Assembly: GCF_024700885.2 (NCBI RefSeq)
Contig: NZ_CP117015.1
Direction: 5' to 3' (one strand)
Length of the DNA stretch: 8,286 bases
Origin: Escherichia coli
GTDB lineage: Bacteria; Pseudomonadota; Gammaproteobacteria; Enterobacterales; Enterobacteriaceae
The position numbers were made by a program. Position 1 is the stretch's first letter. Each line of letters starts with the position of its first letter. This document shows positions 1-3,000 of this stretch, piece by piece.

Positions 1-3000
1 TCATTGTAATTGCCTTATATGGACGATAGTTGTGCGCATATTGCTATGTTTATGAAGATTGTTAGTTAGTTGACTTATGCATCATTGACAGCGTATCTTC
101 CATTGGAAACGAAAAAACCGCCTTGGCAGGCGGTTTTTCGAAGGTTCTTAGAGTTGGCGCTCTTTGAACCAAGGTAACTGGCTTGGAGGAGCGCAGTCAC
201 CAAAATCTGTTCTTTCAGTTTAGCCTTAACAGGCGCATAACTTCAAGACAAACTCCTCTAAATCAGTTACCAGTGGCTGCTGCCAGTGGCGATAAGTCGT
301 GTCTTACCGGGTTGGACTCAAGACGATAGTTACCGGATAAGGCGCAGCGGTCGGGCTGAACGGGGGGTTCGTGCACACAGCCCAGCTTGGAGCGAACGAC
401 CTACACCGGGCCGAGATACCTACAGCGTGAGCTATGAGAAAGCGCCACGCTTCCCGAAGGGAGAAAGGCGGACAGGTATCCGGTAAACGGCAGGGTCGGA
501 ACAGGAGAGCGCACGAGGGAGCTTCCAGGGGGAAACGCCTGGTATCTTTATAGTCCTGTCGGGTTTCGCCACCTCTGACTTGAGCGTCGATTTTTGTGAT
601 GCTCGTCAGGGGGGCGGAGCCTATGGAAAAACGCCTGCGGTGCTGGCTTCTTCCGGTGCTTTGCTTTTTGCTCACATGTTCTTTCCGGCTTTATCCCCTG
701 ATTCTGTGGATAACCGTATTACCGCCTTTGAGTGCGCTGACACCGCTCGCCGCAGTCGAACGACCGAGCGTAGCGAGTCAGTGAGCGAGGAAGCGGAAGA
801 GCGCCTTATGTGACATTTTCTCCTTACGCTCTGTTGTGCCGTTCGGCATCCTGCCCTGAGCGTTATATCTCTGTGCTATTTTCTACTTCAAAGCGTGTCT
901 GTATGCTGTTCTGGAGTTCTTCTGCGAGTTCGTGCAGCTTCTCACACATGGTGGCCTGCTCGTCAGCATCGAGTGCGTCCAGTTTTTCGAGCAGCGTCAG
1001 GCTCTGGCTTTTTATGAATCCCGCCATGTTGAGTACAGTTTGCTGCTGCTTGTTCATCTTTCTGTTTTCTCCGTTCTGTCTGTCATCTGCGTCGTGTGAT
1101 TATATCGCGCACCACTTTTGGACCGTCTTACCGCCGGTATTCTGCCGACGGGCATTTCTGTCAGACAACACTGTCACTGCCAAAAAACAGCAGTGCTTTG
1201 TTGGTAATTCGAACTTGCAGACAGGACAGGATGTGCAATTGTTATACCGCGCATACATGCACGCTATTACAATTACCCTGGTCAGGGCTTCGCCCCGACA
1301 CCCCATGTCAGATACGGAGCCATGTTTTATGACAAAACGAAGTGGAAGTAATACGCGCAGGCGGGCTATCAGTCGCCCTGTTCGTCTGACGGCAGAAGAA
1401 GACCAGGAAATCAGAAAAAGGGCTGCTGAATGCGGCAAGACCGTTTCCGGTTTTTTACGGGCGGCAGCTCTCGGTAAGAAAGTTAACTCACTGACTGATG
1501 ATCGGGTACTGAAAGAAGTTATGAGACTGGGGGCGTTACAGAAAAAACTCTTTATCGACGGCAAGCGTGTCGGGGACAGAGAGTATGCGGAGGTGCTGAT
1601 CGCTATTACGGAGTATCACCGGGCCCTGTTATCCAGGCTTATGGCAGATTAGCTTCCCGGAGAGAAACTGTCGAAAACAGACGGTATGAACGCCGTAAGC
1701 CCCCAAACCGATCGCCATTCACTTTCATGCATAGCTATGCAGTGAGCTGAAAGCGATCCTGACGCATTTTTCCGGTTTACCCCGGGGAAAACATCTCTTT
1801 TTGCGGTGTTTGCGGCAGAATCGCGTTCAGCGCGTTTTAGCGGTGCGCGTAATGCGACGTTATGGTAAATAGCGATCATGTTATTTGATGTTTTTATTGA
1901 TTATCGCTTTCCTATAAAAAAGTCATTATGACCAGTAACAAAGTAGGAATTTGGAGGGTTTTTCTTCATGCTGCCAAACCCATCTTTTCGTTTCTCTACT
2001 AAAGCTATGAGTCCTATCCCGCTCAGGTAGGCATGCGTCCTAGGTATGTCCGCTTCTGGAATAGAAGTCTGCAAGTTTATTCTTTCAAATGAAGCGCTTG
2101 TATAATGACTGTGATTGTCTCGAACAGCACATAAGTAGATGAACATCTTTAGCGCATAAAGCTCAATCTTGCTTCTTAACTTAAGTTTATGGAATGCTTC
2201 AATCCGTTTGCCATCACGAGATAACAACGCTCTACAAGGCATTTTGCACCAGTCCTTCGAACCATCAAACCCAGGGAATCGGTAGATATTTTTTCGCCTA
2301 ACTTTATCTACTGATAACAGCCCAAGTCTCTCTAAAATATCAATGCCTGATGATATTGATGATCTGCTCAGGGCTGTCAGTTCCGAGAGTTCCTCATAGG
2401 TCGCCTGAGCTGAATAATATGTTATGTAGGTATCTATGTAATGACAGAAAGCCTCTTTACTTTCAGCTCTCATGGACAGCGCTATATACAGTTTTAAGGC
2501 TGCGACCTTATGTGACGGTTTTCCTACCTTGTCATCAGTCCATAAAAGCTCTTTTAAGCGTCCATCTAGTACGAACTTTGAAGGAAATTTTACCCAAGGC
2601 TTCATTGTTACCCCATGCGCATTGCAATAAACAGGATTGATAGAAAGGCGACAAGAACCGAAACCGCCAAGACAAGCGGGGTTAGTTTGTGAGAGTTGTC
2701 TGATAAGTATTTGATTATCATTATATATTTATCGGCTTCCATATAATTTCCTATGGTTTCAGTCTTTTTGATAGGAAAATTTAAGCACGTCTTGGCAATA
2801 TCTATCTAGATATAGGTTAGTCTTTAAAATAAAATTATTCCAATTTTTTCTTTTAAAATCATCTGCTTGAAGCAAAATTGAATCGTCTTTTTAAAGTAAT
2901 CAATAGTTCATGAAAGGGATTGTAGAAGATGTTATGGCGCTGAGGGTGTGGAGCATAAAAGATGCTCTGTCTGGGTGTTTTTATAGCGTATGAAGGAAAT

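Follow-up and report, generated by a model that had tools for sequence, protein, structure and literature searches.

A probable mosaic ColE1-family replicon, pairing a p15A-class control module with a pMB1/ColE1-class origin, on the mph(A) plasmid p8_MLI114

Features of the plasmid and its origin region

The window, by which we mean the whole 8,286-nt stretch of Escherichia coli DNA that was analysed, is the entire deposited plasmid p8_MLI114 (NZ_CP117012.1). It consists of a 3176-bp, nikA-bearing, ColE1-like backbone and a 5.1-kb IS26-mph(A) unit; the IS26 insertion site is the left end of a segment at positions 1-104, with bases 1-6 taken into the target duplication. The backbone NikA falls within its family (PF21983, NikA-like, E = 2.8e-18), and a further ORF (1901-2605, minus strand), which we regard as cargo, encodes a 234-aa helix-turn-helix protein. 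Searches of the backbone ORFs against Pfam and NCBIfam returned neither a relaxase family nor a Rep family. The exact sequence is present in at least nine public records, an identical 741 bp in three PLSDB records, and an identical 5' module in seven E. coli records of complete genomes, of chicken, cattle and human origin, while the same architecture is seen in hundreds of natural small plasmids. The origin is an ordinary, already-sequenced ColE1-family type, not a new kind of replicon, and its significance is practical rather than conceptual.

Upstream of RNAII, the segment 1-104 (plus strand) is lineage-specific and replaces the classical -35 region of the ColE1 family. Among 72,556 PLSDB records it was found only in the 3176-bp lineage (100%) and in the Klebsiella plasmid p.P39Z2 (86.7%), and homology with almost all relatives begins at about 103-107; the RNAII -35 region is, in short, a swapped-in segment peculiar to this lineage. 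Within it lies a putative RNAII promoter (70-99, plus strand), proposed on the basis of its sigma-70-like sequence, its placement and its conservation in p.P39Z2, namely, a -35 TTGACT (70-75) and a -10 TATCTT (94-99) separated by an 18-nt spacer or, in another reading, GTATCT at 93-98 with a 17-nt spacer. This was the sole sigma-70-like site returned by a promoter scan of positions 1-1100 (9/12 matches). Its -10 stands where pMB1 and p15A have TAATCT relative to the AAAC(G/A)AAAAAACC start region, and both hexamers are kept in p.P39Z2, there ahead of a different RNAI module. Replicons of the ColE1 family have their RNAII promoter some 500-555 nt ahead of the origin, on the opposite strand to RNAI. 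The -35 is non-homologous to that of the classical promoter, and the position of the site fits the homologous +1; we infer that 70-99 functions as the RNAII promoter. Two other candidates were rejected: a hybrid promoter derived from IS26, since the outward-facing TTGCAA of the IS26 end is followed by no -10 at a suitable distance within 1-20, and TTGACA at 85-90 as the RNAII -35, which has no -10 at the correct spacing.

The antisense copy-control RNA, RNAI, is encoded at 107-210 on the minus strand, as indicated by Rfam, folding and consensus structure. The RNAI family RF00106 matched window positions 208 to 109 (minus strand) with 93.6 bits and E = 4.5e-17, the gathering score being 47. The 104-nt RNA read from 210 to 107 folds into three hairpins at -43.4 kcal/mol (z = -6.82; none of 200 shuffles equalled it), preceded by a 9-nt 5' tail, ACAGAUUUU, and the sense strand at 105-215 likewise folds into three hairpins (z = -4.46). 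These results bear out the preliminary description, which had stated that three stem-loops are kept in RNAI/RNAII. Hairpin 1 spans 201-173, with loop CCUCCA at 189-184; hairpin 2 spans 170-143, with loop CGCCAA at 159-154; and hairpin 3, together with the U-tract terminator, spans 140-110, with loop (U)GCCA(A) at 128-123, all on the minus strand. On the sense strand the predicted loops are of 6 nt each, namely, UUGGCA (123-128), UUGGCG (154-159) and UGGAGG (184-189), the first shrinking to UGGC if U123 pairs with A128. The loops had earlier been given as 'ttggcag' and 'ttggcgc'; both strings are exact, at 123-129 and 154-160, with the correction that the last base of each is the start of the stem. 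In a consensus structure of nine replicons the hairpins are kept, with 31 pairs, five of them showing compensatory changes. The element thus answers to the family pattern, in which an antisense RNA of about 100-110 nt forms three stem-loops and overlaps the start of the primer transcript. Its putative promoter (218-246, minus strand), located by sequence reading and homology, comprises a -35 TTGAAG (complement of 241-246), a 17-nt spacer and a -10 CTAAAC (complement of 218-223), 7 nt from the A at 210. The consensus promoter scan gave no match for this promoter because its -10 is weak; the layout presumably mirrors that of the ColE1 RNAI promoter (TTGAAG, 17 nt, CTACAC).

Alignments to pMB1, ColE1 and p15A place the RNAII pre-primer, of about 525 nt, at 105-631 on the plus strand. 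Its 5' end probably corresponds, by homology, to the pMB1 start, GCAAACAAAAAAACC aligning with GGAAACGAAAAAACC, and its 3' end would be the A-run at 627-631, going by homology and established ColE1 biology. In ColE1 and pMB1 the A-run is the site of RNase H processing and of the switch from RNA to DNA. Segment identities delimit a pMB1/ColE1-class primer-maturation and origin block at 266-810 (plus strand), whose landmarks are a G-run at 362-367 (about -265), a G-run at 609-614 (about -20) and the A-run, followed by the post-origin region; we take these runs to act as in ColE1. The window accordingly has both the conserved domain for primer maturation and the site of the RNA/DNA switch. Beyond them lies rom/rop (863-1057, minus strand), convergent with RNAII as in pBR322 and annotated in the record as a Rop family protein. 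The 64-aa product matches PF01815 (Rop; 110.5 bits, E = 3.5e-32) and is 64% identical at the protein level to ColE1/pMB1 Rop, so that the accessory protein is also represented. Rom, which many although not all ColE1-family members have, stabilises the RNAI-RNAII kissing complex.

Plasmids of the ColE1 type have no initiator of their own and rely on the host for RNA polymerase, RNase H and DNA polymerase I. From the features described above, we consider it highly probable that positions 60-1057 of the window make up a complete and functional theta replicon of the ColE1 family, one that works without a plasmid-encoded Rep protein. The promoter at 70-99 would drive RNAII from about 105; a persistent hybrid of RNAII with its template would form near 609-631, aided by the G-run at 362-367; and RNase H would cut RNAII at the A-run 627-631, leaving a primer for DNA polymerase I. 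RNAI (210 to 107) would kiss nascent RNAII through its three loops, with Rom (863-1057) steadying the complex, and this pairing would refold RNAII so that no primer is made, thereby setting copy number and incompatibility. This scheme transfers established ColE1 biology to the window. Sequence features, folds and mosaic affinities were observed directly, whereas transcript ends, promoter activity, the mechanism of recombination and every statement on compatibility below are inferred.

A different proposal would make the ColE1-like origin a remnant and assign initiation to the 234-aa protein (1901-2605) or to a 37-aa ORF at 263-376, both on the minus strand. The record does annotate the latter as a replication initiation protein, and the 234-aa protein gives weak matches to HTH_36 and HTH_34 (E = 2e-4 and 2e-3, respectively), both under the Pfam cut-offs. 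However, the 37-aa ORF lies antisense within RNAII and matched no family in Pfam or NCBIfam, and the functional elements expected of ColE1 are all intact, with sequences almost identical to those of pMB1. In addition, plasmid pU302S, which has the same origin (92-98%) and an identical NikA, carries only rom, nikA and aph, which argues that the origin is sufficient; since it has aph(3')-Ia in place of the 234-aa ORF, the latter appears to be dispensable cargo. We therefore regard a plasmid-encoded initiator as most improbable.

Mosaic structure and its alternatives

To place the two parts of the replicon, deposited records were compared; origin sequences of pBR322/pUC and p15A served only as probes. 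The pMB1 reference was pET3xa-barn36 (L006), which has a pBR322 backbone (bla-ori-rop); the p15A reference (L008) was a pACYC184-equivalent plasmid of 4245 bp that carries catA1 and tet(C); and the ColE1 reference was NC_001371 (L003). First, positions 105-265 (plus strand), which comprise the RNAI/RNAII overlap and the next ~55 nt of RNAII, form a control module of p15A class. Over 108-263 the identity is 89.2% to p15A, 56% to pMB1/ColE1 and 58% to CloDF13, and over 211-263 it is 92.5% to p15A. At position 248/249, moreover, the window is without ~23-25 nt that pMB1 has, and p15A is without the same stretch. Second, over 289-636 the identity is 98.6% to pMB1 (five differences, no indels), 97.1% to ColE1, 79.3% to p15A and 75.2% to CloDF13. 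Taken by segment, identity to pMB1 is 65% at 108-210, 43% at 211-263, 100% at 289-408 and 97.8% at 409-636; at 637-800 it is 84%, against 97% to pLAO53/pU302S. Third, the two parts meet at a junction island, GTTACCAGTGGCTGCTGCCAGTGG (266-289, plus strand), which is 96-100% identical in every panel member and within which the affinity changes.

A breakpoint test on the triplet of window, pMB1 and p15A assigned 38 p15A-like and 2 pMB1-like sites to the left part, and 53 pMB1-like and 2 p15A-like sites to the right (chi2 = 79.3, 0/2000 permutations). The last p15A-like informative site of the left block is 265, and sites are pMB1-like from 266, the next being at 290. With E423_4677 as the 5' reference the counts were 50/1 versus 1/46 (chi2 = 90.2, 0/2000 permutations). 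This plasmid has loops II and III of the window type on a 3' block of p15A class (93.7% to p15A, 80.7% to the window), and p1PCN033 is a chimera at the level of a single hairpin.

The preliminary description had called the replicon a mosaic, and this holds, the nearest relative switching between the two parts (38/2 and then 2/53 sites, 0/2000 permutations). Two details of that description need amending. The near identity to pMB1 downstream is real (98.6% at 289-636), but it begins at about 264-266 rather than at 250, and ends at about 810-834. The 5' part, which had been called diverged, is indeed unlike pMB1, but it belongs to the p15A class of control modules, with 89% identity to p15A.

Textbooks have described a conserved origin next to a variable RNAI ever since ColE1, pMB1, p15A, RSF1030 and CloDF13 were compared in the 1980s, and the difference between the halves of the replicon owes something to the faster evolution of the RNAI region. 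It could be argued that there was no recombination, and that the window is a close relative of pMB1 in which RNAI diverged fast as diversifying selection favoured new incompatibility types, with the primer/origin part conserved. In every comparison the RNAI region is the most variable (between pMB1 and p15A, 59% identity on the 5' side against 80% on the 3' side), and the compensatory changes point to selection on the hairpins. Rate differences, however, cannot change the nearest relative: the 5' module is 89% identical to p15A and has in common with it both an unchanged hairpin of 29 nt and the length difference of ~23-25 nt, yet the 3' block is only 79% identical to p15A; the change in the informative sites is clean and confined to a single point (38/2 to 2/53); and the same class of control module is found on a p15A-class 3' block. 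Divergence without recombination is therefore very unlikely.

An artefact might also be considered, either a chimeric assembly or contamination of the pMB1-like half by a pBR322/pUC vector, and many PLSDB records do have implausible hosts and 100% vector-type pMB1 origins. Against this, the pMB1-like block is 98.6%, and not 100%, identical to the vector origin; it is flanked on both sides by non-vector sequence; and independent assemblies, whose sources include Mali, Australia, the UK and South Africa, contain the identical replicon on plasmids of 3151-3176 bp. The chance of an artefact is next to negligible.

Based on these comparisons, the replicon can be read with good confidence as a mosaic, in which a p15A-class control module and a pMB1/ColE1-class origin are predicted to make up a complete ColE1-family replicon. 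At least four blocks can be told apart, each with its own nearest relatives, namely, the rare promoter segment (to ~104), the control module (105-265), the origin block (266 to ~810) and a diverged rom. They meet at short islands conserved in the family, a pattern consistent with homologous exchange among ColE1-type plasmids that share a cell. The combination of p15A-like and pMB1-like parts is common in nature and has already been deposited, and the patchwork of promoter, control module and origin makes a tidy case of modular evolution.

Which lineage is the recombinant is a separate matter. The mosaic may be real and the window-type arrangement the older one, pMB1/ColE1 (or p15A) being the recombinant and the reference plasmids themselves chimeric. 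Three lineages do not identify the recombinant; the 5' part of pMB1/ColE1 is roughly equidistant (53-60%) from all else, and the 3' part of p15A is ~79-80% identical to the panel members except CloDF13. The window-type combination is also abundant, with 936 PLSDB records aligning to at least 80% of 60-800. On the other side, p15A-class modules occur on p15A-class 3' blocks in three plasmids with differing RNAI alleles (p15A, E423_4245 and E423_4677), so that this pairing of module and 3' block looks ancestral, an argument of parsimony and not a proof. We find greater age of the window-type arrangement possible but rather unlikely. The three-taxon data give no basis for naming one lineage 'the' recombinant, or for the direction or number of the recombination events.

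RNAI alleles and plasmid compatibility

Plasmids of pMB1/ColE1, p15A, CloDF13 and RSF1030 form separate incompatibility groups, and the loops initiate the pairing of RNAI with RNAII (PMC9458437). The preliminary description was right to distinguish the RNAI of the window from that of pMB1/ColE1: about 40 of ~109 aligned positions differ, so that the full identity that would have contradicted it is not seen, and none of the three loops is in common. Its proposal of a separate incompatibility type is well grounded as a prediction. At the sequence level the window therefore lacks the same or near-same loops and stems that would define a pMB1/ColE1 incompatibility type. Because no RNAI loop matches, compatibility with pMB1/ColE1 replicons of the pBR322, pUC and ColE1 types is predicted, and by analogy with p15A we judge it very likely. 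Nevertheless, loop differences or sequence divergence alone are unreliable predictors of compatibility (PMC9458437). The plasmid p15A itself has one loop in common with pMB1 and is overall no closer to pMB1 than the window is, and its incompatibility group differs from that of pMB1 (PMC9458437).

The loops of the window have two affinities: one hairpin equals that of p15A, and the loops of the other two are of the pU302S/pLAO53 kind, one with a single-base change. The allele, loop 3 UGCCAA together with a 2x2 internal loop in stem II, is rare, its hairpin being present in 9 of 72,556 PLSDB records. Compared with p15A RNAI, hairpin 1 is identical, but there are 13 differences in 104 positions, and loops 2 and 3 are not the same. 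Partial cross-inhibition with p15A is possible because the 5' RNAI hairpin is identical. Toward p15A and toward its nearest relatives, which are 1-4 nt apart in RNAI, the plasmid may prove either compatible or incompatible.

The only related co-resident pair found is in strain E423, where the plasmid E423_4677 occurs together with the p15A-type E423_4245, their RNAIs differing at 17 of 104 positions, loop 1 included; this is suggestive with regard to p15A compatibility, although not decisive. Co-residence of the exact replicon with another RNAI-type plasmid was not seen among the strains examined (MLI114, P048595, RHB05-SO-C07, VTB96926v and VTB97022v). In MLI114 the only other replicons are an IncI1 plasmid and the chromosome; in Salmonella P048595 and E. 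coli RHB05-SO-C07 the other small replicon is a Col156 plasmid, which uses a Rep protein; and for VTB96926v and VTB97022v the neighbouring accession numbers belong to a large plasmid and to the chromosome.

Typing is of little help here. MOB-suite places the window plasmid in replicon cluster 2350 with ColE1 and pBR322-type origins, and p15A in cluster 2335. Because RNAI, the incompatibility determinant, is of p15A class despite the assignment to cluster 2350, such typing has no predictive value for compatibility in this family.

It is tempting to extend the mosaic reading, albeit tentatively and with the odds against it, by supposing that RNAII promoter, RNAI module and primer/origin block are three cassettes, exchangeable independently of one another among enterobacterial plasmids of the ColE1 type, that recombine at short conserved islands, here at about 100-120 and 266-305, and that the rare allele confers a distinct specificity, compatible even with the abundant relatives of the pLAO53/pU302S type. 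If this were so, incompatibility type and copy-number setting would change by swapping, beyond point mutation. In practical terms, mph(A) macrolide resistance rides a multicopy plasmid open to mobilisation by an IncI1 plasmid, and the range of other ColE1-type plasmids with which it can coexist affects how mph(A) resistance accumulates.

Comparison with known systems

Small ColE1-like plasmids that bear nikA, for a relaxosome accessory protein identical throughout the family, but no relaxase gene are known from the family of pU302S, NTP16 and pCERC7 (PMC9282650, citing Moran & Hall). They are mobilised by IncI1 plasmids and have a conserved oriT of pEC34A type, ~108 bp long and ~78% identical to the R64 oriT (PMC9282650). 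The IncI1 plasmid of the host strain MLI114 has both nikA and nikB. Homology of the window to pU302S extends over 103-1187 and probably further, with identities of 92% at 108-263 and 97% at 289-800. Both plasmids encode the identical NikA protein WP_000166966.1, which is also found on the 3176-bp plasmids, and both have the order RNAI/RNAII, rom, nikA and the same architecture, with a 5' part of p15A class followed by a 3' part of pMB1 class. They differ at 8 of 104 RNAI positions, with loop 1 CCUCAA in pU302S and CCUCCA in the window, and loop 3 CGCCAA and UGCCAA, respectively; they are unrelated upstream of the RNAII -10; and in place of the 234-aa helix-turn-helix ORF and the IS26-mph(A) unit, pU302S carries aph(3')-Ia.

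The pACYC184-type p15A plasmid resembles the window in its RNAI (87.6%), including the identical 29-nt 5' hairpin, in the layout of the RNAI promoter and in an RNAII that is ~23-25 nt shorter than that of pMB1. In contrast, loop 2 is CGCCAA in the window and UUGGUAG in p15A as conventionally written (in our fold only GGU is unpaired), loop 3 is UGCCAA and CUGCAA, respectively, the primer/origin block is only 79% identical, and the RNAII -35 region differs. With pMB1/ColE1 the window shares a rom convergent with RNAII and the spacing of the G-runs and A-run at the origin, which is kept because there are no indels relative to pMB1 over 289-636. It departs from them in RNAI (63-66% identical), in 211-263 (43%, with the ~23-25-nt indel) and in the replaced RNAII -35.

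The closest RNAI alleles are those of pLAO53 and pRHBSTW-00863_4, which differ at 4 of 104 nt and have the same loops 1 and 2 as the window; in this group loop 3 is CGCCAA, whereas that of the window is UGCCAA, and stem II has a 1x1 mismatch where the window has the 2x2 internal loop. Finally, all three RNAI loops of pVCSW8 are identical to those of the window, but its stem II is fully paired through compensating changes, its RNAII promoter is the classical TTGAGA/TAATCT, and 31 differences separate the two plasmids over 105-800.

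Two affinities within one replicon

For the block comparison, ColE1 and CloDF13 references came from their own records, pMB1 was represented by pET3xa-barn36, a deposited pBR322-backbone record (pBR322 sequence itself served as a probe only), and p15A by a 4245-bp record found by probe, which carries catA1 and tet(C) in the pACYC184 configuration. First, identity of the window to pMB1 is 100% over 289-408 and 97.8% over 409-636; upstream it falls to 65% in 108-210 and to 43% in 211-263, a stretch in which the window lacks about 23-25 nt of pMB1. Second, identity over 108-263 is 89.2% with p15A, 56% with pMB1/ColE1 and 58% with CloDF13; for 289-636 the values are 98.6% with pMB1 and 79.3% with p15A. 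The preliminary description had a diverged 5' part followed by pMB1-like sequence from about 250. The near-identity is real but starts at about 264-266 in the alignment to pET3xa-barn36, and the 5' part, indeed unlike pMB1, is no orphan divergence: by its sequence, this control module belongs to the p15A class. The pMB1-like block ends at about 810-834, and Rom, beyond it, is 64% identical to ColE1/pMB1 Rop.

A maximum chi-square test on the triplet window/pMB1/p15A (95 informative sites) located the change of affinity. Up to 265, 38 sites are p15A-like and 2 pMB1-like; from 266 on, 53 are pMB1-like and 2 p15A-like (chi2 = 79.3; 0 of 2000 permutations). The switch falls within an island at 266-289, GTTACCAGTGGCTGCTGCCAGTGG, conserved in every replicon compared. 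Since rate differences between the halves cannot change the nearest relative, these data support a recombinational mosaic, as had been proposed, in which the three lineages do not single out the recombinant one.

The RNAII promoter appears also to have been swapped in. The classical TTGAGA-17-TAATCT promoter is kept in pMB1, ColE1, CloDF13, p15A, pVCSW8 and both plasmids of strain E423. Upstream of about -10, the window, pLAO53/pRHBSTW-00863_4 and pU302S each carry a different replacement sequence; the replacements in the window, pLAO53 and pU302S are independent of one another. The sole promoter-like site in 1-1100 of the window is a putative RNAII promoter on the plus strand (-35 TTGACT, 70-75; -10 TATCTT, 94-99). 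Among 72,556 PLSDB records, this promoter segment (1-104) occurs only in the 3176-bp lineage to which the plasmid belongs and in Klebsiella p.P39Z2, where positions 82-185 are 86.7% identical to it and the conserved hexamers are followed by another RNAI module and another 3' block.

Other family members are mosaic as well, in single hairpins or in whole blocks. p1PCN033 equals the window from about 160 onward, and in its RNAI region (about 846-949) hairpins 1 and 2 are of the p15A type and hairpin 3 is of the ColE1 type. In strain E423, E423_4677 co-resides with the p15A-type replicon E423_4245 and carries window-type loops 2 and 3 (CGCCAA/CGCCAA) on a p15A-class 3' block (93.7% identical to p15A, 80.7% to the window; junction near 299-306). 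Therefore, one class of control module is found on two different primer backbones.

RNAI and incompatibility

On the minus strand, 208..109 matches Rfam RNAI (RF00106; 93.6 bits; gathering score 47). For the 104-nt RNA (210 to 107) the predicted fold has three hairpins (-43.4 kcal/mol; z-score -6.82), none of 200 shuffles folding equally well, and the complementary 5' end of RNAII likewise forms three, with predicted six-base loops UUGGCA, UUGGCG and UGGAGG. The three stem-loops of the preliminary description are thus recovered on both strands, and its loop strings match exactly at 123-129 ('ttggcag') and 154-160 ('ttggcgc'). Its statement that this RNAI departs from that of pMB1/ColE1 also holds, with about 40 positions and all three loops different; the RNAI match, the folds and the segment identities to pMB1 together confirm the observation.

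The window RNAI loops are CCUCCA, CGCCAA and (U)GCCA(A). Those of p15A, which differs at 13 of 104 positions, are CCUCCA, UUGGUAG and CUGCAA, hairpin 1 being identical over all 29 nt; UUGGUAG is the conventional 7-nt notation, the predicted fold leaving GGU alone unpaired. Closer still are pLAO53 and pRHBSTW-00863_4 (CCUCCA, CGCCAA, CGCCAA), with four differences in 104: a single base of loop 3 and three bases of the stem II internal loop. All three loops of pVCSW8 (CCUCCA, CGCCAA, UGCCAA) equal those of the window, and its RNAI differs in stem II only, which is fully paired through compensating substitutions. Across nine replicons, 5 of the 31 pairs of the consensus structure show compensated changes. 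The exact hairpin 3 occurs in 9 of 72,556 PLSDB records, and seven complete E. coli genome records contain the exact 5' module; six of these are plasmids of ~3.2 kb, with chicken, cattle and humans as sources.

pMB1/ColE1, p15A, CloDF13 and RSF1030 fall into separate incompatibility groups; RNAI-RNAII pairing is initiated by loop-loop contacts, and compatibility is not predictable from loop differences alone (PMC9458437). No RNAI loop is common to the window and pMB1, whereas p15A shares loop 2 with pMB1 and is no closer to it overall in RNAI (60.9% identity, against 63.3% for the window), which makes it very likely, by analogy, that this replicon would be compatible with pBR322/ColE1-type plasmids. 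Towards p15A, with which it has one hairpin in common, and towards pLAO53-type relatives the replicon may be either compatible or incompatible. Among the records examined for strains MLI114, P048595, RHB05-SO-C07, VTB96926v and VTB97022v, no further RNAI-type plasmid was found alongside the exact replicon. Thus refined to a p15A-class module, a swapped promoter and an incompatibility type that we infer, the earlier interpretation is supported.

In MOB-suite the window shares cluster 2350 with ColE1 and pBR322-type origins, and p15A falls in cluster 2335, so this typing tracks the conserved 3' block; RNAI is the incompatibility determinant, yet replicon typing does not follow it.

Replication model and the IS26 insertion

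By homology with ColE1, on which transcript ends, promoter activity and origin position all depend, RNAII would start at about 105, and its processing at the A-run 627-631 would yield the primer for leading-strand synthesis. RNAI would start at about 210 from a putative minus-strand promoter, TTGAAG-17-CTAAAC (246..218), and bind nascent RNAII by loop-loop contacts that Rom (863-1057; Pfam Rop, 110.5 bits) would stabilise, and thereby block primer formation. The G-runs 362-367 and 609-614 keep the exact pMB1 spacing, because 289-636 has no indels, and the crossover falls shortly after the control region that overlaps RNAI, leaving the regulatory and primer-maturation modules each intact. ColE1-type origins require no Rep protein. 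A 37-aa 'replication initiation protein', annotated antisense within RNAII (263-376, minus strand), matched no Pfam or NCBIfam family; the label recurs in relatives and is therefore probably a propagated annotation artefact.

The window is the entire plasmid p8_MLI114 (NZ_CP117012.1; 8286 bp), from E. coli in human stool, Mali, rotated so that subtracting 928 from a record position gives the window position. A 3176-bp backbone is joined to an IS26-mphR(A)-mrx(A)-mph(A)-IS26 unit of 5102 bp (3183-8284; IS26 copies in direct orientation), flanked by the 8-bp target duplication CGTCATTG (3175-3182, and 8285-8286 plus 1-6; 3176 + 5102 + 8 = 8286); 64 bp separate the insertion from the RNAII -35 hexamer, which lies downstream of it. 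Backbones without the insert, one from Salmonella (NZ_CP093389.1) and one from E. coli (CP099278.1), are 99.84% identical to the window across 3182 bp, with no difference within 60-800. In these two strains (Salmonella, Australia; E. coli, UK sheep farm) a ~3.9-kb Col156-type plasmid (NZ_CP093388.1; CP099277.1) accompanies the backbone, which suggests that they travel as a pair.

The left IS26 (3183-4002) and the right one (7465-8284) differ by a single base, 3552 versus 7834, which in the left copy creates a premature transposase stop (Q130*), so that only the right copy encodes an intact Tnp26; the left CDS is absent from the PLSDB gene table. PLSDB labels the record linear, and its start falls inside mph(A), hence the Mph(A) CDS cut at the record end; the rotated window holds the full 301-aa ORF (6490-7395, minus strand).

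Relatives among nikA-bearing small plasmids

The backbone belongs to the family of pU302S, NTP16 and pCERC7, described as nikA-bearing, relaxase-less ColE1-like small plasmids whose members are mobilised by IncI1 plasmids (PMC9282650). The annotated 'MobA' (1329-1652, plus strand) is a NikA-like relaxosome accessory protein, matching Pfam NikA-like and identical to NikA of pU302S. No relaxase gene was found on the plasmid; for these small plasmids, MOB-suite nonetheless gives a 'MOBF' relaxase. Strain MLI114 also carries the 80.8-kb IncI1 plasmid p80_MLI114, with nikA and nikB (26002-29044), which is likely the mobilising helper.

A 234-aa ORF (1901-2605, minus strand) is annotated as winged helix-turn-helix, with sub-threshold HTH matches only; pU302S has aph(3')-Ia at this position. 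Both pU302S and pLAO53 share the window architecture, a p15A-class 5' part on a pMB1-class 3' part, which recurs in hundreds of records, and 936 PLSDB records align across at least 80% of 60-800. Conserved origins and a variable yet structurally conserved RNAI are long established for the ColE1 family, and the replicon is an ordinary, already-deposited member of it.
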